Source: a virus
Lineage: Duplodnaviria > Caudoviricetes
IMG/VR virus record: IMGVR_UViG_3300044641_006190
Location: 1,465-65,464 of that record
DNA: 64,000 nt
Direction: 5' to 3' (one strand)
A program made the position numbers and the translations under genes. Shown here in pieces: positions 11,652-47,798 of this stretch. Below the pieces are notes generated by a model that did not search any database, was not told the DNA's origin, and saw nothing but the letters and a program-made list of their open reading frames with translations. Numbering within the stretch: the stretch's first letter is position 1; each line of letters opens with the position of its first letter.

Positions 11652-11679
11652 TTGACAGCAAAAATAGCCTATGCAAAAT
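11652..11679 (+). promoter_or_regulatory. Early promoter
   Basis: TTGACA-N16-CAAAAT ahead of the plus-strand small-gene run. Confidence 0.55.
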
Positions 11680-11702
11680 GTCGGTCCCGAAAGGAAACCA
11701 AC

Positions 11703-11825
11703 ATGAGTAAAAAGCACTTCATCCAACTGGCGGACTTCTGCCGGAACCAGAACCCTCACTTCAACCGCGCCCGTTTCATTGACTACATCAATGGCAACTG
11801 CGGACCTTGTGGAGGCAAACGCTAA
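11703..11825 (+). CDS. Small hypothetical protein (40 aa)
   Basis: MSKKHFIQLADFCRNQNPHFNRARFIDYINGNCGPCGGKR, preceded by AAAGGA. Confidence 0.6.
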   Translation: MSKKHFIQLADFCRNQNPHFNRARFIDYINGNCGPCGGKR

Positions 11826-11868
11826 CCACAACCAAAGGGGCCGCGCATCTTACACGCGGACACAACAA

Positions 11869-25452: not shown

Positions 25453-25722
25453 ATGAAAATCTCCTCCCCCAAGTCCTTCCGCCGACTGCCCCCTCCCATC
25501 GCGGATTTTCCGCGCTCCGGCCGCCCCAAATCTCCGCTTTTGCTGACCCTTGAGGCTCTTGATGTCGGGCGTTACATCGACGTTCACCTCGTCCGTGGCC
25601 AGAAGCCGACACTCAGGACGATCCGTTCCAGCCTTCCGCGCTGGGGCAACCGTCTTGGCAAGACGTTCAGCATCCGCAAGCATGCCGGTGAGGAAAGAGT
25701 CTCAATCTACCGCGTCAAATGA
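25453..25722 (+). CDS. Small putative DNA-binding protein
   Basis: GRP...ALDVG...FSIR...IYRV; resembles 30865-31104. Confidence 0.6.
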   Translation: MKISSPKSFRRLPPPIADFPRSGRPKSPLLLTLEALDVGRYIDVHLVRGQKPTLRTIRSSLPRWGNRLGKTFSIRKHAGEERVSIYRVK

Positions 25723-27419
25723 TCGCCGTTGACACAGAAGCCACCTATTCCAAAGACCGCTCCATCGGTCCTTTGGGTGTTCACGGCTACGTCTCCCACC
25801 CGGAGACGGACCACTTCATGTGCTCCATCTATGACGGAGACACAGGACTTGCGTTTGTCGGACACCCCAAGGACGCCCCCTGGGAGGCCATTCGCGGGCA
25901 GGATGTCTGCGCCCACAACTACTCCTACGACCGCGCCGTTTTGCGCGAGTACGAGCGTCGTGGCTACATCCCGTTTGCGTTGGAGGAGCGGGGCTTCTGC
26001 ACGTCGAACCTTGTGGCCTACCTGCAATCTCCGAGATCGCTGCTGGACTCCAGCCGCGAGCTGCTGGGCATCGGCCTCGACAAGACCACCCGCGACAAAT
26101 TCAAGAACAAGGACTATTACTCTCTTCCCGACGAGGTGAAGGAGGAGATTGCCCGCTATGCTCTTGGGGACGCCAAGGCATGCTGGCTTCTGTGGAAGCA
26201 GTTCGCCCACTTGATGCCCGACCATGAGAAATGGCTGTCCATGCACACGACCCTCATGGGAGACCGTGGCGTGGCTGTGAACACTGCCGCCGTCGAGAGC
26301 GGCATTGACCGCTATAAGACGCGGTTGTGGGAGATCGAGCAGGAAATCCCCTGGGCAAAGGAGCACCCGGTCACCTCGCCCATCCAGTTGAAGAATGCCT
26401 GCCGTGCCGCCGGAATCCCGGTGCCGGACTCCACCGCCATGAAGGACGAGCTGTTCCAGGCGTGGAGCAAGAAGTATGCGGAGGCGGTGCCTTTCGTGGC
26501 AGCGGTTCAGAAATACCGCTCGGTCAACCGCTCGCTCAAGGTTTTGGAATCCATCCAGACACGCACCCATGGCGGGCGTGTCCGCTACGGGCTGAAATAC
26601 TTTGGAGCCAATCACACGGGCCGCTGGTCCGGCGATTCCGGGCTCAACATGCAGAACCTTCCCCGCGACGAGGTGGATGGCGTGAACATCCGCAACTGCT
26701 TTGTGGCAGGGCCGGGTCGCAAGCTGTTCATCGCGGACTACTCGCAGATCGAGGCCCGCGTGTCCTTGTGGCTGTGCGGCGACCACGAGCAGTTGGAACT
26801 CGTCCGCAACGGCATGTGCGTCTATGAGGCCCACGCCCGCAAGACGATGGGGTATGATTTGGGCATGCCGCTCAAGCAGGCAGCCAAAGAGGACCCAAAG
26901 TTCTTCGATCTGCGTCAATATGCCAAAGCCCGGTGCCTATCCGGCGACACACTGGTACTTACCCATCGAGGGTATGTTCCCATATCGAAGGTAAAACTTG
27001 ACGACCGCCTTTGGGATGGGGTAGAGTGGGTCAATCATGGAGGAGTCATTCAATCAGGGCACAAGCAAACTGTCGCTTTCCACGGAGATCGGTTTACGCC
27101 GGAACACCAGTTGTTTACCGACGACTCCCAAACAGAAGCTACCTCCGACGTTTTACGGAGCGGATCACCCGCAGTGGACCGGTTCCGTGAGCGAGTATCC
27201 AGTTGGTCAGATGTTTGGGCATTGGCGATTGCTATCCAACGAGTTTATTCGCGTACGTGGATACAAGCGGCTTCGCTGTCTTTGCACTTCTTGCGGGACC
27301 GAGCACGACGTGTCTTTCGATACGCTCAGAAACGGTATATCAACTCGGTGCGGACCGTGCGGTATTCGCAAGTCACGTCAGACACGGGACTTACAAAAGT
27401 GGGGGAGAGTTCTGGATGA
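25719..27419 (+). CDS. polA: DNA polymerase family A, N-terminal part fused to an N-intein
   Basis: Exonuclease motifs VDTE, AHNYSYD, YALGD; HTGRWSG, NMQNLP, motif A DYSQIEAR; RQYAKAR|CLSGDT (intein from 26934); block B FTPEHQLF; stop at 27419. Confidence 0.9.
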   Translation: MIAVDTEATYSKDRSIGPLGVHGYVSHPETDHFMCSIYDGDTGLAFVGHPKDAPWEAIRGQDVCAHNYSYDRAVLREYERRGYIPFALEERGFCTSNLVAYLQSPRSLLDSSRELLGIGLDKTTRDKFKNKDYYSLPDEVKEEIARYALGDAKACWLLWKQFAHLMPDHEKWLSMHTTLMGDRGVAVNTAAVESGIDRYKTRLWEIEQEIPWAKEHPVTSPIQLKNACRAAGIPVPDSTAMKDELFQAWSKKYAEAVPFVAAVQKYRSVNRSLKVLESIQTRTHGGRVRYGLKYFGANHTGRWSGDSGLNMQNLPRDEVDGVNIRNCFVAGPGRKLFIADYSQIEARVSLWLCGDHEQLELVRNGMCVYEAHARKTMGYDLGMPLKQAAKEDPKFFDLRQYAKARCLSGDTLVLTHRGYVPISKVKLDDRLWDGVEWVNHGGVIQSGHKQTVAFHGDRFTPEHQLFTDDSQTEATSDVLRSGSPAVDRFRERVSSWSDVWALAIAIQRVYSRTWIQAASLSLHFLRDRARRVFRYAQKRYINSVRTVRYSQVTSDTGLTKVGESSG

Positions 27420-27882
27420 TAAGGATCGAGTTTTGCAACAGCGGTGGAACGCCATAGTCCATAGATGTTGCAACCCTTCCAGTAAGCATTACCCCAATTA
27501 CGGGGGGCGCGGAATACGAATTTCCGAGGAGTTTTTGTGTGACGTTACTTTTGTCAACTACGTCAAAGAACTGCCCGACTGCCCCCAGATAATAACCCAA
27601 ACTCACACCATAGATAGGATTGACGTAAATAAGCACTATGAAAGAGGAAACCTCCGCTTCGCAACGCATCAGGAACAGATGCGGAATTTACAGTCCACGG
27701 CGCACGTCGAATTTAAGGGCACGATTTGGGATGCTCGTTCGTTCTGCGAACAATTTTGCAAAAACTACCGCCCGCATGTGGTTGCTCGCCTCATTAAAAA
27801 GGGCGTGTCGGCTGAGCAGATACTTTTCAAGGACCGGAACGACCGCCATGTCGGGCGTCGATGGATGCGAACCCGTCTATGA
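27037..27882 (+). CDS. HNH-type endonuclease between the split intein halves (start uncertain)
   Basis: GQMFGHW, CLCTSCG, RWNAIVHRC.NP...YPNYGGRGI, TIDRIDVNKHYERGNLRFATHQEQMRN. Confidence 0.85.
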   Translation: MEESFNQGTSKLSLSTEIGLRRNTSCLPTTPKQKLPPTFYGADHPQWTGSVSEYPVGQMFGHWRLLSNEFIRVRGYKRLRCLCTSCGTEHDVSFDTLRNGISTRCGPCGIRKSRQTRDLQKWGRVLDDKDRVLQQRWNAIVHRCCNPSSKHYPNYGGRGIRISEEFLCDVTFVNYVKELPDCPQIITQTHTIDRIDVNKHYERGNLRFATHQEQMRNLQSTAHVEFKGTIWDARSFCEQFCKNYRPHVVARLIKKGVSAEQILFKDRNDRHVGRRWMRTRL

Positions 27883-28492
27883 TATCCTAGACTGCGGGCC
27901 TCGGCACCGTTTCTGCACGCCTTGGGCGGTGGCCCACAACTGTTTGGGCCTTGGCTTCGGTCTTGGCGCGGCACGTTTCCAATCCTACGCCAAAACCATC
28001 GCAGGTCTCGATCTCACCGCCGAGGAGTCCGAGCGCACCGTCAACCAGTTCCGGGCGTCGAACCCAAAGATCGTCGCCGTGTGGAACAACCTCGGCCGCG
28101 CCCTTGCGGTTGCCAGCCGCGAGAAGGACCGGACTTTCGAGATGGAACTGCCCTCCGGCAGAACCATCCGGTATTGGGACGTGGTCCAGACCCGTGACGG
28201 CATGTTTGTTCGCCGTGAGCGCGGCGGCGAACGCGTGAAGATGTTCCCTGGCAAGCTGTTCGAGAATCTCGTTCAGGCCACCGCCCGTGAAGTCTTCGCC
28301 CTCGCCATCCAGCGCATCGAGCAGGCCGGGGTCGCGGTTGTCATGCACACCCACGATGAAATCATCTGCGAGATTCCCGATGACATGGACGGAGCGGCGG
28401 TGATCCCGCCGTTGATGACGGAAATCCCGCCGTGGGCCGCAGGTCTGCCCGTGGGTGTCGAGTTCACCACCAGCCAGTATTATGAAAAGTAG
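27848..28492 (+). CDS. polA: C-intein (31 aa) fused to the C-terminal part of DNA polymerase A
   Basis: MSGVDGCEPVYDILDCGPRHRFCTPWAVAHN|CLGLGFG, LPSGR, ENLVQATAR, motif C HTHDE. Confidence 0.88.
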   Translation: MSGVDGCEPVYDILDCGPRHRFCTPWAVAHNCLGLGFGLGAARFQSYAKTIAGLDLTAEESERTVNQFRASNPKIVAVWNNLGRALAVASREKDRTFEMELPSGRTIRYWDVVQTRDGMFVRRERGGERVKMFPGKLFENLVQATAREVFALAIQRIEQAGVAVVMHTHDEIICEIPDDMDGAAVIPPLMTEIPPWAAGLPVGVEFTTSQYYEK

Positions 28493-31663: not shown

Positions 31664-31780
31664 ATGAGCAGCGAAGAAAAAACAGAAGTCTTCTGGCTTA
31701 GCTTCATCATTATCGCAATTTTTGTGGTCAAGATTTTAACTGACCTCGGAAAATACAACCTCAACCTGCCAAACCCATGA
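31664..31780 (+). CDS. Small membrane protein (38 aa)
   Basis: MSSEEKTEVFWLSFIIIAIFVVKIL...; ATGA-coupled to the next gene. Confidence 0.45.
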   Translation: MSSEEKTEVFWLSFIIIAIFVVKILTDLGKYNLNLPNP

Positions 31781-32034
31781 AATCCTACTCCACCGCCCCG
31801 CTCAACACCCGCCAGCATCCGCTCGACCTCCTGAACGACATCCGCGCAGCCCTCGACGAGACGGCCCGCATCAACAGCCTCGGCATCAGTTTCGACCTCT
31901 CGGTTGAACCGGCTTCCGGCCTCCCGTTGGATGTTGATCCTCCGACCTATCTTACGATCTATGACGAACGCAGCAACGATCTCCTCGGGGAGCCTGCTTG
32001 CGATGTCGGCGGCCCCTGCGAGAGCTGCCAGTAA
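31777..32034 (+). CDS. Hypothetical protein ending ACDVGGPCESCQ
   Basis: 85 aa with a Cys-rich tail. Confidence 0.6.
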   Translation: MKSYSTAPLNTRQHPLDLLNDIRAALDETARINSLGISFDLSVEPASGLPLDVDPPTYLTIYDERSNDLLGEPACDVGGPCESCQ

Positions 32035-32128
32035 AATCATGCCGGAGTCGGGTGTTCGAGCCACCCCAAGTTAGCCTTCTTGTAGTGTAGCGGAAACATA
32101 GCCGGGGCGGAAGATAAAAAGGCACCTT

Positions 32129-32140
32129 GATCTTTGACAA
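32129..32140 (+). promoter_or_regulatory. boxA-like antitermination element
   Basis: GATCTTTGACAA directly before the RNA cluster. Confidence 0.45.
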
Positions 32141-32143
32141 CTT

Positions 32144-32313
32144 GAAAACAGAATCCAGCGGTAGCTAAATCTGGTCTAAGCCCTTCCGAGCTTAGCGGCT
32201 CAATGGAAGATGGTGTAAAGTAGCTCTGAGTAACGTTCCAGAGTGAAATACAACATAAGCCTCGCAGAGGTGATGCAGGGTTCAAATCCCCGCCCGCTGG
32301 ATTCTGTTTTCCA
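32144..32313 (+). ncRNA. Oversized tRNA-like RNA 1
   Basis: 18-bp closing stem GAAAACAGAATCCAGCGG/CCGCTGGATTCTGTTTTC, D-arm-like TAGCTAAATCTGGTCTAAGC, T-loop GGTTCAAATCC, ends CCA. Confidence 0.75.
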
Positions 32314-32318
32314 TCAAT

Positions 32319-32467
32319 TTGCCTGCCGTGCCTGTGCTGGCGGAAGTATGTCGCCAAAGTAGATTGGAAATATCCAACGAACGAGTAGGGGCAGAAAAGC
32401 GTGAGAGAGCACAAAACCGAAGACAGGGAGCAATCCCAAGTAGGACTCTCGCGGCGGCAGGCAACCA
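32319..32467 (+). ncRNA. Structured RNA 2 with acceptor-like stem and CCA
   Basis: TTGCCTGCCG/CGGCAGGCAA followed by CCA; internal hairpins; no clear T-arm. Confidence 0.55.
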
Positions 32468-32471
32468 ATTT

Positions 32472-32614
32472 GAGCGCGTGGCGGAATGTAAAGACGCCGA
32501 CACAAGGCAAATGTTGACCCGAGTTTGCGGAAGAACGGACCATCGGGTCCACCAACGAAAGTGGACAATTCAAAAATCCACAGGTTGCAGGTTCAAATCC
32601 TGCCGCGCTCGCCA
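32472..32614 (+). ncRNA. Oversized tRNA-like RNA 3 (143 nt)
   Basis: GAGCGCG/CGCGCTC-G-CCA, Leu-like D-arm TGGCGGAA...AGACGC, perfect T-arm GCAGG-TTCAAAT-CCTGC. Confidence 0.8.
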
Positions 32615-32619
32615 AATTT

Positions 32620-32790
32620 CTCCCATACTAGGCGCACCCGAGGCGAAAGCCACGAGAGGGCGTGAGGGATGGCCGCAACACCTAGTAGAAGGCACGGCCC
32701 CTAACCCCGTTCAGGTAAATGCGGAGGCGAACGTCGCCTATCCAATAGCGGGTATCAACGAATGACGTGACAGCCGGAGAGACGGCCTTT
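32620..32790 (+). ncRNA. Structured RNA 4
   Basis: TACTAGG/CCTAGTA stem, GGC-GAAA-GCC and GCCG-GAGAGA-CGGC hairpins; no credible ORF. Confidence 0.45.
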
Positions 32791-32890
32791 GTTTGTTATG
32801 ATGACCCCGACTGGAGAGTGGGGGCTGCGAGATGCTCGCGGCGCTATTGACGACTTGACCGGGCAGGCGCAACTTTCCAGCCCCGGAAAC

Positions 32891-32931
32891 AGCCTCCTCC
32901 GTTTCAGCGATGAAGCGGGGGAGGTTTTTTT
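32891..32931 (+). terminator. Intrinsic terminator closing the RNA cluster
   Basis: gcctcctccgtttca-gcga-tgaagcgggggaggt followed by a T-tract. Confidence 0.75.
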
Positions 32932-32986
32932 GTCTTATAGAGCGAAAACACTTGCTAACAAAAGTCTAATAGATAAATACTCCGGC

Positions 32987-34141
32987 ATGACCCACGACAC
33001 CATCACAGTCAAAGGGCGGGAATTTCCGCTCTACAAAGAACCTTCCACCGGATACTGGCGCGTGCGCAAACGGACACGCGATGTGTCCATCAACAAATCC
33101 ACCCGCATCTCCGATCTCGCCGAGGCCCGTAAATGGGCGCGTGTGTTCATCGAGCGGGAGCTGAACAACAGCTATCGTCTGGCCACCGGAGGACACACGC
33201 TTGAGGAGGTTGCCGCCGCGTATCTATCTTTCCCAAAGGCCGCCCGCGAATACGTCGCCGAGGCCAACGTGGCCCGCCTGCGCACCGTGGTCAGGGAAGC
33301 CCTTGGCAAGGAGCTGTGTGAAGTCCGCGTCAAGGACATCGGCCCGCGTCTGTGGGAGCAATACGCCGCCTCCAGACACGGCGGCAGGCTCGATCTGTCC
33401 ACCCCGCGCCGGGAGAACATTGGCATCATGTCGGCCCTGCGCAGCGCGGCCAGCGTCTTCGCCCGCAAGCTCGACCGCCGCTACAAGGACGCGGGCATCT
33501 TCCTTGACTTCGCCAACATGCGCGAGCTTCCATTCCTGCCGGTTCTACACGTTCACCGCCAGCCGGTTTCCGCTGACGCCATCCAGTCGCTCACAATGGC
33601 CTGGAAGTCGCTCCGGCAGGACAATCCGCTGCTCTACACCACCATCGGGCTGGCCCTCCATGCGGGGCTCCGCGCCTCGGAGATCGCCGCCGCCCGCCGC
33701 AACTGGATCGAGACTGACGGCAGCGCCGTCCGTGTGATCCTGCGTGACCGGCCGGAGGAAGGTTTCCGCACCAAAGGCAAGGTGGACAGCTCGGCATGGG
33801 TGAGCGGCTTGGTGCTCGACATCGAGTTCGCCGCGCACCTGCTTTCACTGCCGGACGGCCTCCTGGTTCCGGTTGAAGGAAGCAAGGCATGGTTCTTCAA
33901 GACCATCGTCAATCAATGGGTGCGCCAGTTCATCCCACGAGAACTCGACGGTAAAGGATTGCACCGCCTGCGCGGACTCTACGGTGACGCCGTGAAGTCC
34001 CGTTTCGAGGCCCAGATTCTTGCCCGCACTGCGTCGATCGACGCCGCACGCCTGGCTCTTGGCCACACCTCTGCCGCGATCACTTTGCGGAACTATCTGA
34101 CGCCGGACGCTGCCAGCACCACTCCGGGTAATCTAGGCTAG
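32987..34141 (+). CDS. int: Tyrosine recombinase/integrase
   Basis: GLRASEI, TKGK, LHRLR, LGHTS...ITLRNY; arm-binding-like N-terminus. Confidence 0.88.
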   Translation: MTHDTITVKGREFPLYKEPSTGYWRVRKRTRDVSINKSTRISDLAEARKWARVFIERELNNSYRLATGGHTLEEVAAAYLSFPKAAREYVAEANVARLRTVVREALGKELCEVRVKDIGPRLWEQYAASRHGGRLDLSTPRRENIGIMSALRSAASVFARKLDRRYKDAGIFLDFANMRELPFLPVLHVHRQPVSADAIQSLTMAWKSLRQDNPLLYTTIGLALHAGLRASEIAAARRNWIETDGSAVRVILRDRPEEGFRTKGKVDSSAWVSGLVLDIEFAAHLLSLPDGLLVPVEGSKAWFFKTIVNQWVRQFIPRELDGKGLHRLRGLYGDAVKSRFEAQILARTASIDAARLALGHTSAAITLRNYLTPDAASTTPGNLG

Positions 34142-34673
34142 TTCTGATCTCGAAATCCTGGATGACATCCAAAGGCAGATGAACCTTGGCCCGTAGGACG
34201 CACCCGCAAACGCGGCAGGACTCCAAAGCCCTGTCCCGTTGGGTGGTCCTACCGGCCAGGAACTTCGTCACCTGCGTAAGGATTCCACCACAGCCCCAGC
34301 AACCAGTCACGTCCCCGTTGAAGGGGCAAGTGGAGCAGATTGCCGCACGTCGCTCGGCCTCCTCTTGCGGCACGAACTTGCCGCCAAACTTGAGGACGGT
34401 GTTCATGAACCGGCGAAGGTCTGCAATCGTCAGGGACCGCTTTGATACATCCACCGGCCTGTCCGAGCATGGCACCTGCAAGTTCTGACGGCACAGGTCG
34501 TCTTGGAAACGCTCCTCCCACCCTTCGGCCAGATCGTAGCCCATGGCTTTGCGGTGGAGGCGAACCTGATCAATGATGCCCCAGTAGGACAACCCGTGGA
34601 AGACGGCACCGGATTCCGGCTGCACATACTTCCACTGGTTCGAGGTTCCACGGGACTTGTTGGTCACTCTCAT
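34080..34673 (-). CDS. Cys-rich hypothetical protein
   Basis: RAAICSTCP, CWGC, CRVCGC, WCW; 62-bp convergent overlap with int. Confidence 0.7.
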   Translation of the reverse strand: MRVTNKSRGTSNQWKYVQPESGAVFHGLSYWGIIDQVRLHRKAMGYDLAEGWEERFQDDLCRQNLQVPCSDRPVDVSKRSLTIADLRRFMNTVLKFGGKFVPQEEAERRAAICSTCPFNGDVTGCWGCGGILTQVTKFLAGRTTQRDRALESCRVCGCVLRAKVHLPLDVIQDFEIRTSLDYPEWCWQRPASDSSAK

Positions 34674-37600
34674 TTGAGTCGGTATTTGGATTTGGCTTTT
34701 TCGGTGGCATCCGAGGCGATCTGGCCCATCGCACGAGAGAGCTGGGTGTCATCCATCCTGCGCAGGCGGGGCAGTTCGCGGATCATGACGCGCTTCACCT
34801 CCTTGCCGCGATAGGTGACATAGTCAATCCACTGATCGTCGGTGAGCAGCCCGTTGCGGGCTTCGATGGCACCGCGTTGCGGGAGACCGGGCCCGGTTCC
34901 GCGCTCCATGATGAACTCATAGACCGCCTTGTCAGGGCCGGACGGAGGTGTGAGAACAGCCAGCGGAAGCAGGCCGCTGAGATACAGGCGGTTGCCAACT
35001 GTGGCCAGGGTGTCTCCGGTCGGGAACCCACGCGGATCACCGAGGGCGTTCACGTCGCGGCGTGTCAGCAAGGAGCGGGCAACCGGCAAGTTTGACCAGA
35101 TCGCGCCCATGCGGCCACGGCTTTGGTCAGGTCCGATGAACAGCCGCTCCACAGACCCGATGAGTCCGCTGAACGGAATGACCGGGTTTGCCTTGTAGAG
35201 CACGCTGCCAAGCATGTTGGTATCCGGGCCTTTCCCGGCGATGAAGCCGACAGTGGATTTGGCTCCAAGGAAAGTGGCCTGCTCGTGCCAGCCTGCCATC
35301 ACAGCCCCAAGGTATTCACCCATGGATGAGGCGTTGAGCGGATGTCCAAGTTTGCGGTTGAGGCGCATATCATCCACGGCTCCCGCCATGATCATATTGA
35401 TCTTCCAGGGCTCCAGAACTCCACGCGCCCAGGACAGGCTGGCGCGTTTGCCGCCGACGTTCATCTCCAAAGACCCTTGGTGGTGGCCTTGCTTGATCCA
35501 GGCATCGCGCTCGGTTTTGTTGGCGGGACCGGCGAGAGTGACCTTGAAAAGAGGTTCGTCATCGTCGCCCGTCAGGGTTTGCAGCAGCATGACCACAACC
35601 AGCGCGGACGAGCCGACGATGGCTTCGGTCAACCGCTGGCGAAGCTGCATGTCTGTGGCGGCGGACTGGCGGTAGAACTCCACGTCAGATTTGACGCCAA
35701 AGGCTTCTTTCTTGCCCGCGTATTTCTTGGCCAGATGCCAGCGAAGCAGCCCGTAAGGAGTAAGCCACGCGCCACGGTTCAGGAGATTCAAAGGAACCCC
35801 GAAATACCCGAGGAACACACGGCCAAGGATGGGATGCTTGCGCAGGATGCCATTGCCGACCGAACGCACGGCCATGGAGAAAGTGTTGAGCACGTCCGCA
35901 ATCGGAGACTCTTCACCGCGATGGTTACCCGTCTCCAGTTCCGACTCCTTGGAGGCAAACTCGGCGAGTTCTTTTTCGACACGCTTCTGGGTGTCCTGGT
36001 CGCCGGAGACCATCTCGGCAATCTCGCGGCCAAGACGATGGCGGGCGAGGTCTTGCATGCGGATGGGGACGGACAGGTATTGAATCCGCAGCTCGCGCAG
36101 GGCTTCCTTCACACGGCGTTGCGGATTCCACTCAGGAACGCGCAGAGCCCGGAGAGTGCCGCGAATATCCTGGTCAAGCAGGCGCAGGCTTTCGTTGTTC
36201 GGATCGAGGCTCGGGTCGGCATCATTGACGAGCTTGTCCAGCTCATTGGTGACCGTCTGGTCATCCTTGCCGACCAAATTCTGAACGCGCTGCGTCATGG
36301 CGGCAATCATTGACTGCTCGGCCTGCATTCTGACGGTGAGGTCAGTGGAGGTGCGCGTGACCATGACGTAGGCGTCCGCAGGAGCGATGCCGTTCTTGAC
36401 CAGTGTCAGGTACCCGGCGGACTTGAGGAAGTAGTTCTGCATGGTGACATACCACGCCTGATCGCTGGAGGACAGCAGCCTGCGGGTGATGTCGGTCATC
36501 GCGGAAAGCGCCCTGGCGGCACCGGAGAGACGACGCCACAAAGTCTGCTTGCTGTCACGGAACGCCGCCAGTCCGTCGCGGAAGTCGCGGTTGAGGCGGG
36601 TGACCTGCAAGACCTGCTGCTGCATCGCATTGGTGTAGGCGTCCGATTTGATCGAGAAGCGCAGGTTCTTGATGTAGCTGTTGACCACTTCCTCGAAGGA
36701 CTTGGTGATCAGCTCCACGCGGGACATGTCGCGCTTGATGGTGGCGGAGCCAAGATCGAGCAGCATGCGGTTGACCATGGAGCCGAGCGGGGCAACGACA
36801 TTGATCGCCATGGTGGAGAGTCCGCCAAGGGCATTGTTGTTGTAGCTGATCGCCAGCACTTCCAAAGCGGTCTTCGGCGGCCTGCGCAGCTCGAACAACT
36901 GGAACATCTCGCGCAGAGCGCGGGCAACGTCCGTGTCGCGTCCTTCTGCGGACGCACGCTGGATCATCTCGTCCAGCCGGACGAGCTTGCGGTTGTCGGC
37001 GGTGGAGAAGGCGGAGAAGCCCATCTCTTCCGCGAGCGCCTGGCTGGCACGCAGCGAAGGATCGGCCATGCCAAGACGGATCAGCTCGCGCATGCGGGCG
37101 ATGTGCTTCTCGGCGAGTGTCGCGGTCTCCTGCTGGCTGGCGAGCGTGGATTTGCGGTAGTCCTGCTGCTTCTTGACCGCTCTTTCGAGAGCCTTCTCCT
37201 TGGCCTTCACGATGTAATCGACAAGGTTCTTCTCCACCCAGGAGGCGGCCGCGTCCACTTGGGGAGGACTGAAACCGTTGGCCTCAAGGAAGGTGCGGAC
37301 AAGCTGCTGACGGATGAGCGGATTGCGGATGGTTCCGGCGGCTCCGCTTGGGTCAGTGGTGACTCCTGCCGTGTTCTCCTTGATGAACTCGATCAGAGCG
37401 GAGAGACGTGTCGGACTCTTGTTCACCAGCTCCTTGACCCGGCGCTCGGTGTTGGCGAGGTCAAACAAAGCCTGCGCCTCGACGGTCGTGGCTCCGAACG
37501 CGGCGGCCTGCTTCTCGAAGTCGGCAAAGTTGTCCATCGGGACAAGGACTTGCTGGCGGTAGAGGGCGCGGATGTTCATCTGGCGGACCTTCTGGTCTGC

Positions 37601-40600
37601 CGCGATGTTCTTGTAGGTGCCGTCAGGCTGCTTGACGATCTGGATGTTGCGATTGCGTGCCGCCACACGGGAGCGGATGAGAGTCTCCACAGACTTGCGC
37701 ATGCGGTCCTCGGCCTGCTGGGTGCCACGGACACCGGCGGTGCTGAACAGCCCGGGGAACTTGCCCTCCATGTAGGCACGCCGGGTCATGAGTTCAGCGT
37801 CGTCCTTGGACAGCCCGTTCTTGACGAAGAACTCGGTCACGACCGCCGTCTGCCAGCCGATGTCGCTGATATCCTTGCCCTCGGCGTCTTTGAACGCCTT
37901 GATGATCGAGGCGTAGTTGCCTTTGCCGGGGGAGAGCACGCGCTCATAGACGCGGGCCATGCGTGCCGCACGCTCGCGGACGGCAGCTCCGTGCGCGGCA
38001 AGCGCCAGCATCGGAGCGGTCTTTTTGTCCACGCCAAGACTGGTCAGGACCGGAACAAGTTGAGCGATTGCCTCGTCCTCGGTGATCCTGGCATTTGCCG
38101 GAGTGCGGATGAATTTCTTCACCGTGCTGCGGACTTTGCCGGACTTGTCGCTCTCGAACGCCTCCTTGACCGCCGGGACGCTGTTGAGGCGGGCGGTAAG
38201 ACGCTGTGCCTCTTTCTCAGGCATCGCCAAGTAGGTGGCCCAGGCCAGATCAACCAGCTTCTCGACCAGCTCGTCAGAGATTCCCTCGCCAGACAGCTCG
38301 GCGGTCAGGTTGGCCGTGAGTGTGTCGCGGTTGAGGTTCTGCTCGTTGTTTGCCGCCGCGACCACCATGTCACGGATTCTGTCGAAAAGGGACTGCGTCC
38401 ACTTCGTCGCCTTGAACTCCTTGTCGAGGAAGCGTTTGATGACCACCGCGACACGACGCGCAGCGGCGTCGGCCTCGGATTCGTCTTCCGCAGCCTCGCC
38501 CTCATCCTCCGCCTCGTCGATCTCCGTGCCGACCTCATCGACAGGAGCGGGCGGCGGCGTCGGCTTTGGCTTCGGCCTGCCCTTCGGCGCGGCGGGAGTT
38601 TCGATGGTCGGGATTTCACCCTCAACATCAACACCGGGAGTATCCAAGGAACCTGTGAGTCCGTCTGCCAGATCGGCGATCTCGTCCATGACCTCGTCGC
38701 GGAGCTTGGTCAGCTCGCCCAGATCGGTCGGAAGATCGGCAAAGTCGTCATCTGAGGACAAGGCATCGTCCACCCAGCTCTGGCGGGAGGCCGCGTTGCG
38801 GGAGAGGATTTCCTGACGACGGCGTTCGATCTCGTTGAGGAGCTTGATCTTGCGCAGCAGAACGGCCATGCTCTCCTTGGCACGTCCGGTGAGGGCTTCC
38901 AGACCACGGCGGAAAATATCCATGCTGTCAGCAGGAGGCTTGGCGTTGTTGATCGTCTTGCCAGAAGCGGAATTGCCATCCAGGGCGTCATCCTTGAGTT
39001 CACCGGCGGCCTCAACCTCGCTGTCGAGGTCGCCCGGGTTCATGCCAAATTTCTTGCCGCCCGCGTCCGTCGCGTCATCAAGCAGCTTCTTCATCTCGTC
39101 GAAGACCCTGTTCACTTCGCTGGAATACTGGCCGCGCATCTGGAGCGCACGTCCGGCTTCCGCCAATGTCAGGAAGGAGCCGAGAATGGCCTGGTTGTAG
39201 TTGCCTTTCCATGAGTTGAATACGCTCATGTCGCCCTGCTTGGCCCCGAGAAGGATGCCGTAGCGGATCAGCTCGGCTTGCAAAGCGATGCCAGCCGCGC
39301 TGGCGTTTGGGCCTGCGAGCTTGAGGTAGGAAAGGATAAACGCTCCCGGTCCTGCGTTCGGGTCAGTCTTCGTCTTGACCGTGTCCTCCAAGATACGGGC
39401 GGTGGCTTCCTTGACCTTGGCCGTGGTTTCCGGGGTGATCTTCGGCATCCCGTTGTCGTCAAAGGTGAGTCCAAGGAACCTGGCTGCTGCGGCACGGGAT
39501 TCCGCCACGCTGCGGGTGTAATACGCCTCGCCGCGCTTTCTGCCAAACACCTGTGCGAACTGCTGCTCGGCCTGGGTGACTGGAGTGGCTTCGAGAATCT
39601 GCGAACGAACGGTTTCCGCGTCCCTCTCAGGCTCCATGCCGGAGTCGATTGGCGACTGGCGGGCACCGCTGTTATACAGGCGATCCATCGCCTGCGGGTA
39701 GGCCACGTTGAACGCCGGGACTCCCGACGACATGCGGACCAGGTATTTCTTGTCCTGCTCGGACAAGTCCTGCGGACGCTCAAGCGGCTCAAGGAAAGCG
39801 ACGCCGTTGAGGTCATCCTCCTGGACGCGAGCCATGAACACGTCAAACGGCAGACCGCTGGCGCGGTGAAGCTCCGGCAGCGAGATAAACGCGCTGGAGG
39901 ATTTGACGGCCAGCGAGATGTATGCCTGCGTGAGGGGATCGGAGCGCATGTTGCGCAGCATGGCCGACGCACGTTCCAGCTCGTCCTTGAGGGACGCCTC
40001 CTCGGTGACCACCGGGCCTTCGGGAATCTCGCCGGAGACGAGCGCGAGCGACTGTGCGATGGCCTTGCCAAGCATGGTGCTGCGACCGAACTCGCCGGTG
40101 TAGAACAACCTGGCCAGAAGCTCGGATACCCTGCGCAGGGCGGACTTCACGAAACTAGAGACACGGCCTTCCGGTTTGAATGAGTCGGGCACGCGGTCAA
40201 GGAACGCGACGAACGCACGTTCATGCGGGCGGTTCGGGAACAGCGCGGCGATGAACTCTTCGAGGGTTTTCAGCTCATAATCGAACCGGCCGTAGTTGCC
40301 GGTCTGCTTTGCGTAGCTGCGGATTTTCTCCAGCAGCTCATTGAGGGAGGCCACCACGGCGCGTTCCTGCGCATTGGATGGATTGACGATCTTGCGAACC
40401 GTGGCGTGATGAATCATCTCATGCAGCACAAGGCCGTTGAGGCTGATCCTGCCGCGACCACGCGCCCGCAGATTGATGGAGATTGTGGCAGGGCTGCCGT
40501 CGATCCATTCACCGGCGTTCCGCAAGCGTCCGTCCGAACGGATCATGAAGTTCAGCCCCGACCAGTCCAGCTTGAGCATGGCCTCAATGAGAACCTTCTC

Positions 40601-43600
40601 CAGATTGGTGGTGAGCTTGTCGTCACGAATGGTCTCCAAAACCGCTTTCCAGTTCTGCTGGCCGTGCGATCCAAGCTCGGTCGGAAGGCCAAGCCTTTCG
40701 AGAGCCTCCTTGTTCTTTTTCTCAAGGTAGTCGAGGCGGCGTTCGGAAGTTTCGCGCTCGGCTGGGGATTGACGGGCGTCTGTTCGTACGCTGCCCTGTA
40801 ACGTCTGGACAGTTGTGCGGTTGACCACCACATCCTTGAACGCAGATTTCGGCAAAAACTCCTCGAACAGAACTTCGTGAAGTTCTGCCTTGGCCAGGTT
40901 GTCAGACACTTTGTCCGCCGTCTCGCCGAGCACAAACTGGTCCCGGTTCGCATCGGAGATGACCATCTGCCGTGCCTGCTCAGGCGATCCAATGGCAACG
41001 AGGAAATACTTGGATGGCAGACCGTCATCGTCGAGATCAACCTTGTCTTCCAATGTCACAACGGTGATCTCTTGGGGAATCAGCGACCGGAGAGCCGCCT
41101 CGTCTCCCGCGTCGAGAGCAGTCTCGACATTTGCTTTCAGCGCAATCAGATCGACTGGCGACGGAGCCGCTCCCTGCGAGGCTCGCATCATACCATTACC
41201 GGGCTCCGGGGCGTGTTGCGAGGCTTCAAGAATGCGCTTGGACCAGTAGAGGTAATACTCGTCGGTTCCGCGCTTCGGGCCTAGACGGCCAAGCACGCGG
41301 TTGAGGAACATCTTCACCCAGTCCATGAACTTGCGAACGATCGGACGGTTGATCGCCTCGACTCCTTCGCGGTTCAGGATGGTAACGAGTTTGCGGACAT
41401 ACACTTCCTCACGTGCTTCGCGCTCAAGCGAGCGGTCTGCCCGCCATCCGGCGTATTGGTCGTATCCGCGTGTGACAAGGGCGTCGATCTCCTGCGGAGT
41501 CACCACCGCACGCATCTCGGGCTCAAGATAGAGGACCAGATCGGCAAACTTCGGAAGCGTGCGAATGGACTCGATCCCACGGTGCATGACCTCATGGACA
41601 GTGGCGTCGGCGATTGCCGCCGCAGGACTGCCGTGCTCGTCAAGCTGGGTAATCTGGTCAACCACCACGAACGCACGGCCTGTTCTGGAGTTGAAGAACC
41701 CCTCGTTGCCGTCGCGGATGGCCGCACGGTCGGCATTCGTCAGATCGGTGCGCTTGAGCAAATTCTCTGCGGTGTCCACCGTCACAACGTCGTTGATAAA
41801 CGGCAGCGTCCTGGCCAGAACAGCCAAAGCCTCACGCGCAGCGGGCAGATCATTGCGGGTCAGAGGACGAATCTCCTTGGCAGGAACCGAGGCGCGGAGC
41901 ATCGCCCGTTTCTCGCGGATCACCACGTTGATCGCTTCCGCTGTGGAGGTTTCCACAGGGTTCTCGACATCCAGGATTTCCCCGGTCGGCAGAACACGGA
42001 AGTCCGTCAGCGCGGATTGCACGCGCTGGGAAATATCCGTGCTGACGCCTTTGACGATGGCTCCCATGTTTGCCATGCGGGCACCAACGCGGACGGAAAG
42101 TTTGCGCTCGAACTCGATCTGCGATGTGAACAGCCAGTTGATGCGGGCTGGCGTCTTCATGCCATAGCGGGCGATGCGTTTCGAGGTCTGCTCGACCTCG
42201 GTGCCGCGCCATGGAAGGGTGACCACGATCTGAGTGCGTGGGTCATTGCCCTTTTGGTCATGCAAAGACAGGCCGGTGCCCCCACGGGCGATGGTGGCGA
42301 CAAGAACTTTGACATCGCCGGACTCCCATCGACCAAGCGAATCCTGGCCGGTGACCCCCGACTCGTCGCTGGTGTAGAAGGCCACGTTGTCCCCAAATGC
42401 CTTCTTGAACCTCTCCTGCGCGGAGGGGAAGCGGATGGTGGTGACCCCTTCGTTGACGAGGGCACGGAAGAACTTGATCGCCCCGTCAAACAGGACGCCA
42501 GCCGCCTTGCGGGCGTCGGAGCTTTGATCGACGCCCGTCTCTTCAAACGCCTCGGCCTTGGCGATCTCCTCAAGCAGATCGTAGTCGCGTTCAGACTTGG
42601 TCTCCACAAAGATGGCGACCTTGCGGGAGTTGTTGAGTTCCTTCTCGGCCATCTCAATGGCGGCCTTGATCTTGGCCGCCTCAAGCACGCGCTTCTGCAT
42701 GTTGAAGACATACCTGATGGCATTGGAGTCCAGGTTCTTGGCCTCCTTGACCACCTTGGCCATCTTGTTGTAGAGGTCCACCCATTCGGCCTCTCCCTCG
42801 ACCAGCGAGTAGTCGAAGGAAGCCATGCCTTCCCCCAGTCGTGCGGCACGCTGCGAGAACAGTCCGCGCTTTCGCAGGTATTCACGAGCGGCGGATTGCG
42901 CGGCAAGCGCGGCAGGCCCCGTGATCTCCCAGTTGACCCCGGAGGGCTTGCCTTGCGTGTTGAGCACGACACGTCCGCCAAACACGGCGGCGAAGCCGTA
43001 GAAGCCCTGCTTGCCTTCGTAAAGATTCGGAACGTCAAACTCCTTGAAGATGCCGGTGGGAGCGAGGAACTCCATCTGTGACAAGTCCTCGTAAGGTGTC
43101 GCCGAGGCCATGAGGACAAAGCCTGACTTCTTCATCCACTTCTCCGCATGCGCGGAGCGTGGCGACTGTCCTTCGCGGGAGTAGCGGACATTGTGCGCCT
43201 CATCCAAAACAAGCATGTCCGAATCCCTTGGGGGATTGGTGGAGTCGCTCTTGTCGAGGCTGGCGTAGGTAATGAAATCAATTTCGTCACCAATGCCGAA
43301 ATCAGCAATGTCTTCCTTGACCTGATCTATGTGAGTCTGGCTCTGGGTGACGAAAATGATTTTCGGATTCTTCTTCCCGGATGCCTTGAGCTTGGAGATG
43401 ATCGACTGGATGGCGGCGGCCATCACGAAAGTCTTTCCGGTGCCAGGATCGGAGGCGAGCATGAACATGCCATCACCACGGGCATGGGCATTGCGGATGA
43501 GCGCCGCGTCGGTGAGCTGTTCGGCAACAACCTCGGCAAGCATTCCGGCCTTCTGCCCTCCCTTGATGAGGATGTTACGCGCAGATTTGTCGATGGAATT

Positions 43601-46600
43601 GTTGATCTCGTTGGCGGTGAGCCTCGAAGAATCCGGCATCGAGGCTACTCCATCTCTTCGCTCTGCGATGGCGTCTCGTCGTTCTCTGGGGACGAAAGTT
43701 CTTCGTCCTCCGACTCGTCCTCCGGCGGAGTCAGCCTCAAAGACATCATTCCCAAACTGAACAAAGCTCCCATGGTCGCGTATGGTGAAACTGTTGGTGT
43801 TCGGGTTGAAGACGAATCCGTTTTTGGTGAGTAGCGTTCCATAAGTGCGTGTGGTCTCCGAGCGTGGGATGGTAATGGCCCCGTTGGGCTGTAAAGTGGC
43901 TTCGATGCCGACACCGGCAAGGTTGCTGATCGTCTCGTCGAGCTGATCAGCATACTGCTCGTTCATTCCGGCGTAGTCTTCGTCGGACAAACTCTGCGCC
44001 TGCTGGAAGTCCCTATATTGGGGAAGGCGGCGAACCAAGTTGCGCACCTCGTCGAGCTTGGTGCGATTGGTGATGCCTTTGGTGGCTTCTTCGTTGAAGA
44101 GAGTGTTGAACAGGTAGATCGGGTCTTCCTCAAGAAGCTGGTTGATCGACCGGCGTTTCTTCTGACCAAAACCGAGTGGTGCATCCATCTCGGAGGCAGT
44201 CGGAGCTTCGCCCACAATGGGCTCAGGGGAGGTAACGGAAGCGGCAGCCGGATCGAAACGAGACAGAATTGTGTCGATCTGGGCCTGGTCTGGGAGGGCC
44301 TCGATCTGTGGGTAGAAGATTCGCAGTGACCTCCAGGCGGAGGCAAGCATGTCACGCACCTGCTGCCATAGATCAGGCACCAGTTCCTTCATGGTGGAGA
44401 CAAAATCCTCGAAGCGCACGACGCCTTCCTGAACAGCGGCTTTGCCGATGCGAATGAGAATTTGCGCGGCAACATCGGGCCTTCCACCAACAGTGGCGCT
44501 CTTTCCAAGTTCTTTGCGAAGCGCGGCGAGGTCTTTCACTGCGGAGGCGCGGATCGCGTCAATGGCGCTCTTGGTCTTTTCTTTGCGGGCCTGGCGTTCG
44601 GAAGTTTTAGGGCGTGGCTTGGCCGCAGGTTTGGCTGGGGCAGTTTCAGCCGCAGCAGGAGCAGGAGCAGTTTCAGTAGCAGCAGTGGCAGGCTCGGCGA
44701 CGGGAGCTGTCTCCATTTCCATGACTCGGGTGCGAATCTGGTCGCGCTCCGTGTCGTTTTTGGCGGCGGGAAACTTCTCCCATTCCTTGATCGCTTCGGG
44801 TGAAGTCAGTTGATCCCGAACCCGCTGCCACTCGGCGTCAGGAGTCTCCAGATTCATCTTCTGCTGCGCACGCTCGGCTTCCCCGGCGGCTTTGGCGGAA
44901 GCAAGCTCGGCAAGCGGATTCTCCGCCTGCGGCTTTTTCGTCTCTCCACGAACAGTCGGGCGTCGGGATTCCGGCACGTCGAGAAGCATCTCCTCATCTG
45001 CTGGTGGAGCGAACCCGGTATCATCCGGGGCACGGTTGGACTCATCCACCGGAAGCGTCGAGTAGATCGTGCCAGTCGGGTCGATCTTCTGCTGGCCGAA
45101 CTCACCTCCGGTGAGCACGACAGCGGTGACATTGCCGTCCTCGTCAGACTCTTGAGTGACGCGCATCTTCTGTCCGGCCACGTCCACCACGTCGCCAACT
45201 TCGAGGCTGCTGACCTGAATGGCCTCCGGCAACGCCTCATTGAACGCGGCGTTCTCGAAATCCACGCGCTGAGCCTCGTCCCTGCGTAGGTTCTGCTCCT
45301 GCTTGGTCTGCTGCTTGTTCTGGGTGGTAGAGGATGCGGAAATCTCACCGATCATGCGCCACATGTCGGAAACGTAAACTCCAAGAGCCTCCGCCGCCTT
45401 GTCGGGGGAGAGTCCCGGTCCTGCGGAGGCATAGATTTTCTGGTGAGCCGGAGGAAGCGTCGGAGCATCGTCCCACAGGGACTTGTTCTTCTCCCAAAAG
45501 TCTCCGCCCATTTTCTGAGCTTTGCTTTTGCTCATCAAACGACCCAGACTGACCAGTTTCCGAATGGTCGGGTGATCGAGGAAGCTGAGAGATGCAGCCT
45601 TCCTCTTGGGGGCTGGGGCGGTGCCAACGTCTCCCGACGTGGGCTGTCCTCCAGGTAGCGATGCTGTCGGCACTTCCCCCGCAGGGGTGATTACTTGCGT
45701 TTGGACTTGCCCGCTTTCGAGAGGGCGATTGCGACCGCCTGCTTCTGCGGTCGGCCTTCCTTCATCAACTGGCGGACGTTCTTCGACACGGTTTTCTGAG
45801 ACGATCCTTTGGCTAGGGGCATTGGTAGGGGTGGGTGTGGGTTGCGTTGCTGCCGCAGCCGGAGTGACGGCGGTAGTCTGCCCGGTCATACGTTGGATAT
45901 ACTCGTTCGCAGACGGGGTGACTGGTTGCTCGCCAGCGTTGATACGGGCGGCTTTCGCGGCGAGATCGGTGATCGCCGGATTTGGAGCTTTGCCTCCACG
46001 AGGCGACGGCTGCATGATCGAAGCCAATCGCTGCTCTGTCGGCGATGCCGCTCCCTGAGGAGCAGGCTGGCCCGGAGTAAGCTGCTGGCGCATGGCCTCG
46101 GTAACCGTTGCCTCGACGGCCGCCTCCTTGGCTTTCTCCACGTTGGCGGCACCTTTGCCTGCCAGATCATTGGCGGATTGCCTGAGAGCGTTGGCCGTGG
46201 CCGGGGCCACACTTTCCACGTTATCCGCAGCGTTGAACACGGCGGCAACAGCGGCGTCGGCGTCCATTGCCACTTGCTCGACCCGGGCAGATTCCTGAGC
46301 GGCTGTGTCCGCCACGGGATCAACGGGGGTTGTGGCAGGTTTGCCAATCCTCATGTTGAACATCTCAGCGGCGGCATTGGCGTCGCCTTTCTCCATGAGC
46401 TTGGCCGCATCACGGATGGACTGGAGCCGCTGGTATGCCTCAGAAGCCTTGCCGTAGTTCCGATTATCGGAGGCTTCCGCAAGCTGCTTCCGGGCTTCGA
46501 TTTCCGACCCCACCAAGCTCAACGCAAATTGCTCGGGAGAGACCGTCGTCGGCTCCGCCTTCTTGGGGCCAAGAGCCGATGCGCCAGCCTTGATGACGCC

Positions 46601-47755
46601 CCCGGCTCCGAGCATGAATCCAGTTCCGTAGAGCGCGGCAGGGGCGACCTCCTTGGCCCCACGGATAACCCCCTCCACTCCGGCATAAGGGTTGGCGACC
46701 TTGGACGGGTCTTCGCCTCGCAGGACTGCTTCCATCTTGGCTTGGTCCCATCCCTGGCCACCGACCTGCGTGGCAGTTTCTCCGGCTACTTCCAGAGCGG
46801 CGTCGGCAGCAAGCAAGCTGCCCTTGCCCAGAGCGGACTTTGCGATCTTAGAGAGCGCATTTTTCCCGAGCCCAAACACTGCCTGACCGACGCCAAAAGT
46901 CAGCGCGTTGGAGATACCTTCCGGTCCGGCCTCCCACATGCCAGTATTCTGGGCGATAGGAAGCAGTTGCTTGTAAAGATCGTCCTTTTCCTCCCTGGAG
47001 AGGGAGCGTCCGGCGTTCTTCTCCGCCAAGGAGAAGGCATCACGAAGGAACTGGTTCCCCGCCATGGTGTAGGCGGCCCCGCCGGAGGCCAGCGCCCCGC
47101 CGAGGAATCCGCCGATCTGCTGACCAAGGAAAGAGCCAAGACCGACAGCGGCCGGAGTAGCCACAGCTCCCGCGCCAGTGGAGACGGCTCCGGCTCCGCC
47201 AAGCCATCCACCGATAGCTCCGCCAGCCATTCGGCCTGGAACACTGCCCGCCGCAGCAGATGCCATGGCGGCAGTAGAGAAGCCGGAGCTGGGGGCGAAC
47301 TCACGAGCGGCAGAGCCAAACGAAGTGGCCTCTCCCTTGGCTTCGAGATCGGCCTGCTTCGTCCGAATCTCCTCATCGAAGGCGTCTTTCTCGGCCATCG
47401 CCTGCTTGTATTCAGGCGTCCATTCGTCTGGATGTGTGAGTCCTTGCCGGAGCTGGTAGTATGCTGCTTTGGTGCTGACCGGAATACCGCGCAGCACATC
47501 CCAAGTTGAAGATAGTGCATCGCTGGCGCTGATGAACGGGCGATCTTTGGGTGCTTCTGGTGTCGGGACAGAATACTGACTGCTCTTGCTGGTGACAAAC
47601 TCGTCGAGCGTCGTGACTTCCTCGGGAGACAGGTTTTGTCCGGCCTCGAAGTCCGCCCTCCATTTCAGCAGAGACGTGGTTTTCTGTTCGGGAGTGAGCG
47701 TCGAAAAGTCAGGGAGACTTTCGACCTCATCCCATCGCGGAAGGGAAGTCGGCAT
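34670..47755 (-). CDS. Giant polyvalent virion/ejection protein (DarB-like architecture)
   Basis: Gly/Ala-rich hydrophobic N-region; SF2 motifs [30 protein letters not shown] and HEMIH zincin motifs; helical C-terminus. Confidence 0.85.
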
Positions 47756-47798
47756 CCCGGAAGATTTCCCCACCTCGGAAATAAATCAAGCCAAGTCC

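Follow-up and report, generated by a model that had tools for sequence, protein, structure and literature searches.

The species 1 and 2 RNAs of phage T4 have been known since the 1970s. They are encoded by rnaC and rnaD (139 and 119 nt), directly after tRNA-Arg in the transfer RNA (tRNA) cluster of T4, and rnaC combines a canonical T-arm (CCGGG UUCGAAU CCCGG) by its closing stem with long inserted hairpins (folding z-score -4.57). Both RNAs are expressed and validated by Northern blotting, and where a 2022 transcriptome paper treats them, it lists their function as unknown (PMC9697503). Here we report an array of three oversized tRNA-like units (U1, U2 and U3) in a phage of the Caudoviricetes (Duplodnaviria), located in a stretch of 64,000 nt (positions 1,465 to 65,464 of the IMG/VR virus record IMGVR_UViG_3300044641_006190). 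This stretch, referred to as the window, comprises almost the entire 65,464-bp record, the ends of which are direct terminal repeats. With a probability of roughly 60%, we consider the locus to be a tRNA-operon-like array of non-decoding, tRNA-derived RNAs, each built from a frame and an insert and probably matured by the tRNA machinery. Three families are involved and not one locus, and the frame-plus-insert architecture is the main new point.

Among the described systems, T4 rnaC appears to be the closest analogue, by resemblance in kind and not by membership. The trait in common is an oversized RNA with a T-arm beside phage tRNA genes, as found in L141 and in units of a broader family that lie within tRNA arrays (L-numbers are labels of the related viral and metagenome stretches that were compared with the window). 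The window units have no sequence homology to rnaC or rnaD (blastn gave chance matches of up to 14 nt, with E at least 0.48), rnaC lacks the tRNA-Leu-like D-arm of U3, no pattern of a frame with variable inserts has been described for it, and the families of the window are known only from uncultured phages. Searches with the array region, the 5' frame of U3 and U2 against 50,697 cultured phage records (blastn) returned nothing or chance matches in coding genes of cyanophages.

In the engineered 'tRNA scaffold' and in the tRNA-microRNA chimeras of gammaherpesviruses, a tRNA frame provides processing and stability to an RNA module inserted at the place of the anticodon arm. The design logic is similar here, whereas those RNAs are laboratory constructs or eukaryotic viral RNA polymerase III transcripts; no natural counterpart from a bacterial virus with an invariant frame and hypervariable inserts was found in the papers searched. 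A tRNA-like domain fused to a large non-tRNA domain is also present in transfer-messenger RNA (tmRNA) and in YrlA RNA. U3 differs from tmRNA in having G3-C70 and no G3:U70, and its inserts leave no room for both a tag reading frame and pseudoknots; the only tmRNA call in the window was a permuted one, obtained with ARAGORN at a lowered threshold. YrlA RNA ends in a Ro-binding stem and not in an acceptor stem. Rfam gave neither a YrlA nor a tmRNA match in the array region at E <= 10, and neither Ro/TROVE nor an RNA ligase, a CCA-adding enzyme or an RNase was found in the 29 open reading frames (ORFs) of the window that were scanned against Pfam or PHROGs. Both tmRNA and YrlA RNA are processed or modified by tRNA enzymes (for YrlA, PMC4201824). 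The literature search yielded no paper on an invariant tRNA-Leu-like frame with hypervariable inserts, on the U2 motif or on boxA-led arrays; a survey of candidate RNAs in IMG/VR does report, among its results, unnamed 'tRNA or tRNA-like' candidates (PMC10690425).

Unit 3 and its family

The array is located on the plus strand (32128-32933), between the last small ORF of the replication block (31777-32034) and an integrase gene, and consists of a boxA-like motif, three stem-closed units that end in CCA, AUUU-type linkers and a terminator (Table 1). The linkers read TCAATT, ATTT and AATTT, and every following unit is given a T at position -1 and a G at +1. All three units fold more stably than dinucleotide-shuffled sequences, as measured by z-scores of the minimum free energy (MFE). 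An initial annotation, made from the sequence alone, had described four units; three of them stand, while the fourth does not, because 32616-32804 is unstructured (z +0.36) and 32805-32931 is a separate element linked to the integrase gene. That three units end in CCA holds for U2 and U3, where the closing stem is followed by CCA, and for U1 only if the last C of the stem is counted together with the CA behind it. The linkers, the terminator, the D- and T-arms of U1 and U3 and the absence of a canonical anticodon loop, all part of the same annotation, were confirmed: the loop in U3 has 11 nt, and U1 and U2 have no arm with a 5-bp stem and a 7-nt loop.

At its default threshold, ARAGORN found no tRNA and no tmRNA in the whole window, and Rfam 15 gave no match at gathering score. 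At E <= 10, the only relevant match between 31900 and 33100 was a fragment of the U3 T-arm (32582-32603), which reached 15.7 bits with the tRNA model as compared with a gathering score of 29; the remainder was junk. The units are not canonical tRNAs.

U3 has the geometry of a tRNA, with a 7-bp acceptor stem (GAGCGCG/CGCGCUC), U8 G9, a D-arm (GCG-GAAUGUAAAGA-CGC) without G18G19, a T-arm (GCAGG-UUCAAAU-CCUGC) and a terminal G-CCA; U1 shares this geometry in part and U2 does not. The insert of 89 nt between the D-arm and the T-arm forms two hairpins, one of which is the Leu(CAA)-like remnant already noted in the initial annotation (GTGGA-CAATTCAAAAA-TCCAC, 32561-32581); its 11-nt loop (32566-32576) contains UUCAAAA. 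The acceptor length, U8 G9, a 3-bp D-stem with GUGGCGGAAU...AGACGC, the UUCAAAU T-loop and a discriminator that is mostly A in the family are features of type II tRNA-Leu (RF00005), from which U3 differs by the D-loop and by an insert (31-222 nt in the family) in place of the anticodon and variable arms. When the D-arm was compared with 381 phage tRNAs, on average 12.2 of 19 positions matched the 25 tRNA-Leu genes and at most 10.2 matched any other isotype. By this comparison, the U3 frame is most like tRNA-Leu.

A search with the D-arm motif GTGGCGGAAYGYAAAGACGC yielded 41 viral stretches. A unit counted as closed if its T-loop was followed, after 3 nt, by a 7-nt strand able to pair with the 5' end, with at least six of the seven acceptor pairs formed. 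The 41 motif occurrences examined comprised 38 distinct units (83-274 nt) closed in exact tRNA geometry and three for which no closure was found. In the alignment of the 38 frames, 99.5% of the cells were paired (28-43% in slid controls), a percentage that is inflated by the closure filter, which does not inflate the number of pair types. Changes on both sides were observed at six of the seven acceptor pairs and three of the five T-stem pairs, and the observed values were reached by none of 500 shuffles. A T is present at -1 in 30 of the 38 units, and the discriminator base is A in 28 of them and G in the window.

The frames are far more conserved than their surroundings. They are 93-100% identical to those of the window in L138, L232, L216 and L219 and 78-88% identical in L154, whereas in the same five phages the inserts have 26-51%, U2 61-81% and the 300 nt upstream 56-62% identity. 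In four of these five diverged phages the 3' frame is conserved to 100%, and the 5' frame is equally conserved. In L141, the closest relative of the window, the entire U3 is 97% identical, with three of the four differences at unpaired positions and one in the tail. Most inserts cannot be aligned with one another. Their folding is on average slightly more stable than that of shuffled sequences (mean z -0.89, below zero in 29 of 38, t-test p = 6e-5), and L128 and L145, the only close relatives that were informative, show six compensatory pairs within their inserts.

With a looser pattern that allows a GG-containing D-loop, 110 viral stretches with 85 distinct units were recovered. In this broader tRNA-Leu-like set, tRNA genes were present at 62 of 117 loci (383 in total), and the units are often located within large tRNA arrays. 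The set includes near-normal tRNAs, namely one with the anticodon UGG and a long variable arm (L098) and a 90-nt Leu(CAA) with an AGTCAGG frame (L010), and three members of the family reach the gathering score of the Rfam tRNA model (29.4-31.8 bits). The near-normal members indicate descent from a phage tRNA-Leu lineage. Clustering of the ORFs within 5 kb of 45 U3-type units revealed no family common to most loci; the largest real clusters (4-6 loci) were general replication and recombination proteins.

Units 1 and 2 and the boxA-like leader

As judged from sequence comparison, U2 is a different, widespread conserved RNA family that is separate from the U3 frame. Its closing stem P1 has 10 bp (32319-32328 with 32455-32464) and is followed by CCA, and GCCUGUGCUGGC, GAGAGAGCAC and GGACUCUCGCGGCGG vary little or not at all between members, although the flanking bases of the pattern were fixed by the search. 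A gapped pattern derived from the window and L006 matched 6 viral and 82 metagenome stretches (soil, freshwater, marine and gut assemblies). Core motifs were present in 49 of the 71 distinct matches, the other 22 being chance matches or divergent variants. The 49 units aligned with 88.7% of the cells paired; there were 19-28 double changes per column across five columns of P1, and one pair of helix P3 (CGCGAGAG/CUCUCGCG) is AU in 8 and GC in 40 units. The covariation score of P1 and P3 was reached by none of 500 shuffles. A candidate pseudoknot (GUGCU/AGCAC) is paired in 97.6% of the cells and has zero covariation. About 27 positions, unpaired ones included, are invariant; 21 of them are fixed letters of the search pattern.

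Most members of the U2 family are isolated between ORFs. A U3-like unit follows in only 7 of the 47 members with enough downstream sequence, as counted with a regular expression (eight were tagged if L232, which has fewer than 60 nt downstream, is included). ORFs within 3 kb of the 49 units again revealed no family common to most loci, and the top clusters were spurious ORFs over the RNA itself; Rfam contained no counterpart of U2 at E <= 10. A motif of the U2 5' domain of the window, CGAACGAG..GGGCAGAA (32375-32400), recurs in the U3-type insert of L143 and L147 (about 385-410 in L143), which hints at sub-modules shuffled between the U2 and U3 families.

U1 is closed by a perfect terminal stem of 18 bp (32144-32161 with 32294-32311) followed by CA, and has no discriminator base. 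Its interior comprises a D-like arm, three hairpins and a T-arm (GCAGGG TTCAAAT CCCCGC) with one A.C mismatch; the MFE of the unit is -63 kcal/mol. The sequence of the terminal stem was found in 14 viral stretches with seven distinct interiors of 65-151 nt, some of which have D-like and T-like arms in common and differ between them. The stem is preceded by TGATCTTTGACAAC in six of the seven cases and by TGATCCTTGACAAC in the seventh. L245 has the same interior as the window, with a compensatory change in one hairpin (GCCUC/GAGGU to GCCCC/GGGGU) and G.U-compatible changes in the T-stem.

Together, the covariation of the U3 acceptor and T-stems and of the U2 closing stem and the higher conservation of the frames as compared with their flanks bear out the earlier proposal that tRNA-derived scaffolds are selected here as RNAs and are not decayed tRNAs.

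The boxA-like motif ends 3 nt ahead of U1 and, as first annotated, opens the array. The same motif, or a variant with one or two changed bases, is found at the array starts of nine relatives (L002, L141, L152, L154, L156, L245, L247, L249 and L252), whatever the first unit: the array of L156 starts with U2, that of L002 with a GACTCAG-type unit and that of L141 with tRNA-Arg, behind a motif that reads TGTTCTTTGAC. The motif is not a general promoter of the phage, because the 64 kb of the window contain only one exact copy and one copy with a single mismatch. Its likeness to an rrn-type leader lies in the 13-nt motif, which is close to rrn boxA, at the head of an untranslated operon of structured RNAs, and the 18-bp stem of U1 behind it recalls the leader-trailer stems of rRNA processing. 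It is equal to the boxA of Escherichia coli rrn at 11 of the 13 positions. The G at position 9 is as in the 12-mer boxA of Aquifex aeolicus, and the positions at which the two bacterial sequences differ are given in the same source (PMC3177189). The locus differs from rrn operons in that no boxB or boxC was identified in the window, and binding of Nus factors to its motif is putative.

In L141, two real tRNAs with encoded CCA, tRNA-Arg(TCT) and tRNA-Met(CAT), take the places of U1 and U2 ahead of the U3 homologue; this is the clearest sign that the array has the anatomy of a tRNA operon. In the window and in L152, L156, L138 and L232, the array is directly 3' of the last ORF of a gene block on the same strand. 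Mosaic units occur in L002 and L138. In L002 (2590-2800), the 3' end of a GACTCAG-type unit with its CCA is followed by an ATTT linker, about 33 nt of a U2-type start and then unrelated sequence, which looks like a recombination scar inside the array.

Proposed maturation and rival explanations

Bacterial tRNA precursors present RNase P and the enzymes that trim 3' ends with just such features, namely a U at -1, a G at +1, a stack of acceptor stem and T-arm, and CCA-AUUU linkers. By analogy, the array would be transcribed into a single untranslated precursor, and the boxA-like leader would recruit the NusB/NusE antitermination complex of the host, so that transcription is not stopped by Rho. 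RNase P would cleave at the U(-1)/G(+1) junction ahead of each closing stem, and RNase E/Z together with exonucleases would trim off the A/U-rich CCA-AUUU linkers; a CCA end would either be encoded or be repaired by a CCA-adding enzyme. The predicted products are three stable RNAs, which we consider non-decoding because no unit contains an anticodon loop of 7 nt on a 5-bp stem. Their frames would ensure folding, processing and stability, and the variable insert would be the effector, most probably a module that binds protein or serves as a decoy and is adapted to the host.

Several observations weigh against this reading. No RNA run was among the 24 sequencing runs listed: all runs listed with the stretch are DNA or probably DNA. 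The complete stretch is present in nine lake-water DNA runs, which are listed as separate studies and may include the source sample. Run X24, labelled metatranscriptomic and 'probably DNA', contains a 223-nt contig over 32127-32256, which is neutral with regard to expression. Lake DNA contigs of other organisms that bridge the interior of U1 (32142 to 32288) and the insert of U3 (32497 to 32585) at 80% likeness are read only as relatives with frames in common. Besides the effect of the closure filter mentioned above, the structure of the U3 inserts is modest, with a z below -2 in only 6 of 38. CCA is encoded in just 6 of the 38 U3-type units and in a minority of the U2 members, and in L141 the two tRNAs end in CCA and the adjoining U3 homologue in ACCU. 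The 18-bp stem of U1 and the architecture of U2 are, on the face of it, poor substrates of RNase P; RNase III or another route is possible. The sequence invariance of the U3 frame (26 and 25 nt) exceeds what processing by RNase P requires, which suggests either some sequence-specific partner or frequent recombination (cassette exchange) at the frames, and recombination within the frames would fit the mosaic units of L002 and L138. Finally, no positive clue to a target emerges from the loci, since the U2 and U3 loci have no conserved neighbour protein and the units no complementarity to the genome: no unit is complementary to the rest of the window over more than 13 nt, or more than 16 nt with one mismatch. 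An antisense role was rejected on this result.

A decoy for anticodon nucleases, suggested in the initial annotation, found no support, because no anticodon-like loop is conserved in the family. A Leu(CAA)-like loop was seen only in U3 of the window, in the near-identical unit of L141 and, in a similar form, among the L011-type units that belong to the broader family (CUCAAAA in a 13-nt loop). More tentatively, and at odds we put well below even, the locus could be a natural 'tRNA-scaffold display' of phages, in which a near-invariant frame derived from tRNA-Leu and the analogous frames of U1 and U2 act as a chassis for structured modules of about 30-220 nt that are swapped or evolve fast. It would then be a hypervariable cassette locus in an antiterminated, rRNA-style operon, with modules that serve takeover or counter-defence as aptamers or decoys specific to the host. 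U2 would count as a third phage RNA, independent and widespread, whose core is catalytic or binds protein.

The array might instead act in cis, either as 3' structures that protect the upstream replication-gene mRNA or by processing itself, in which case U2 would be a ribozyme not yet described and would cleave the array. The position directly behind a gene block of the same strand in five phages fits such a role, as do the many U2 members that stand alone between ORFs, and the invariant positions of U2 together with its possible pseudoknot would be typical of a catalytic or ligand-binding core; for U2 in particular, a role in cis is possible. However, a single terminator hairpin would suffice for 3' protection, and the T-arms, the U(-1)/G(+1) junctions and CCA are marks of released tRNA-type products. 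As no self-cleaving ribozyme of Rfam matched U2 even at E <= 10 and the pseudoknot lacks covariation, we consider this explanation of the array unlikely. Working tRNAs, from which small introns are removed to restore an anticodon arm, or aberrant recoding adaptors of the tRNA-Leu type with enlarged anticodon loops, are rather less credible still. The frame of U3 does retain U8 and A14, its acceptor stem and a canonical T-arm, and A15 could pair with U48; the hairpin at 32561-32581 contains the heptamer of a Leu(CAA) loop, the broad family includes near-normal tRNAs, and three family members reach the gathering score of the tRNA model. Against this, the intron mode of ARAGORN made no call in the window as long as the default threshold applied. 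A lowered threshold (-ps80) led to calls of U1 as Leu(aag) with a 65-nt intron and of U3 as Arg(acg) with a 48-nt intron, and 46 of 86 records of the broad family received a call; the isotypes scattered widely and the intron positions ranged between 28 and 41, as a permissive search would give. G18G19 is missing from the D-loop, and even the smallest U3-type members (83-84 nt) have no 5-bp stem with a 7-nt loop. No Rfam group I intron matched the window or 14 related loci, among them the loci whose inserts measure 161-222 nt, in support of the earlier remark that the inserts are too short for such introns, and no bacterial mechanism is known that would excise non-group-I inserts of 6-220 nt at such positions.

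An explanation at the level of DNA is likewise highly improbable. The units could be attP-type identity segments with which the adjacent integrase matches a host tRNA gene, or sites of recombination or replication, their RNA structure being incidental. The integrase gene is only 373 nt downstream, the complete conservation of the 3' frame in four phages is what a match to a host target would require, and the first 8 nt of U3 form an exact tandem array at 11521-11567 (GAGCGCGT, 5.9 copies). Nevertheless, the equal conservation of the 5' frame is not predicted by the logic of attP, and the acceptor stems covary. U3-type units occur with no integrase nearby (L141, L138 and tRNA arrays), and L003 has the integrase and the element at 32805-32931 and no units. 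In 802 genomes of two phyla, the 24-nt 3' frame of U3 was found only in two small contigs that themselves bear units; where ARAGORN identified the matches with one mismatch (two of three places), they were ordinary tRNA-Arg and tRNA-Val. The D-arm motif had only two true matches in 185,579 species genomes. Functionless remnants, that is, decayed tRNA genes or assembly junk, would explain why tRNA finders reject the units and why the spacer (32615-32804) is unstructured. This is already contradicted by covariation in two families, by a conservation of the frames far above that of flanking coding DNA, by the dozens of independent contigs in which the units recur (soil, marine, freshwater and gut metagenomes) and by the nine lake-water runs with the complete stretch. 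The array of non-decoding, tRNA-derived RNAs stays the preferred reading.

Neighbouring features and significance

The features of the array region are collected in Table 1. Other genes of the window encode a family A DNA polymerase, a DUF5906 primase-helicase-like protein, a helicase, an exonuclease and a terminase.

Table 1. Features of the array region, with positions in the 64,000-nt window.
Feature	Position	Strand	Remarks
boxA-like leader TGATCTTTGACAA	32128..32140	+	reading; conserved at array starts
Unit 1 (U1), ~170 nt	32144..32313	+	18-bp terminal stem; z -4.99
Unit 2 (U2), 149 nt	32319..32467	+	separate RNA family; z -4.07
Unit 3 (U3), 143 nt	32472..32614	+	tRNA-Leu-like frame with insert; z -2.52
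Spacer (earlier 'unit 4')	32615..32804	+	z +0.36; no unit-wide homologue
Hairpin cluster and intrinsic terminator	32805..32933	+	75-78% identity in L002 and L003
Tyrosine-integrase-like gene (context, not part of the array)	32987..34141	+	phrog_1 integrase, E 1.8e-12

In the spacer, 125 of 200 shuffles fold equally well as 32616-32804, and its single match among the loci compared is a 30-nt hairpin motif in L147. A small hairpin, ACAGCCGGAGAGACGGC / ACAGCCGGARAGACGGC, recurs between genes in this phage group (about 32771-32787 in the window, about 2676-2695 in L002 and 1144-1171 in L147). The element at 32805-32931, which is located upstream of the integrase gene, has eight pairs with compensatory changes among the three sequences from the window, L002 and L003. 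Its first part (32805-32890; 3827-3905 in L002 and 3828-3905 in L003) comprises three hairpins and an invariant single-stranded TTGACGACTTGAC; the array is closed by a 16-pair terminator hairpin (32891-32926) and a T-run. The integrase orthologues of L002 and L003 are 86-87% identical to that of the window. Since L003 retains both integrase and element and has no tRNA-like units, the element is, by this comparison, independent of the units; candidate roles are those of an arm or core of attP and of a regulatory RNA for int.

The perfect tandem repeat of GAGCGCGT mentioned above, whose unit equals the 5' strand of the U3 acceptor plus U8, is located between divergent gene blocks and overlaps an ORF on the minus strand (11508-11831). 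A second such array was not found in 256 records (2.0 Mb), and the repeat may have arisen by chance or may serve as an iteron or operator. The gene for the family A DNA polymerase is split (25719-27419 and 27638-28492), with an HNH endonuclease ORF (27037-27882; phrog_374, E 1.7e-37) between the two parts and overlapping both, which looks like a homing-endonuclease insertion of the intron or intein type. Directly after the integrase region, the minus strand contains a single open reading frame of 4,367 aa (34670-47773). Long tandem repeat arrays of 21 nt (7 codons) occur in a minus-strand ORF at 62437-64000, a pattern characteristic of repetitive proteins that resemble fibres or adhesins. ARAGORN identified tmRNA genes on two phage contigs (L045, 3203-3532; L081, 952-1358), both of which contain oversized tRNA-Leu-like units as well.

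This study indicates that oversized tRNA-like RNAs in tRNA-type operons of phages are not an oddity of T4, as they form large covarying families in viromes of soil, freshwater, marine and gut environments. Such families are missed by tRNA finders and by Rfam, and 'no tRNA found' does not mean that a phage has no tRNA-like genes; a practical gain would be two or three new covariance models for phage annotation. The contrast between an invariant frame and a free insert is a testable design principle, and the families supply dozens of natural insert variants for screening. Should the inserts turn out to be decoys or aptamers, they would represent a new RNA-borne layer of the conflict between phages and their hosts, and a natural precedent for the tRNA-scaffold trick of RNA engineering.

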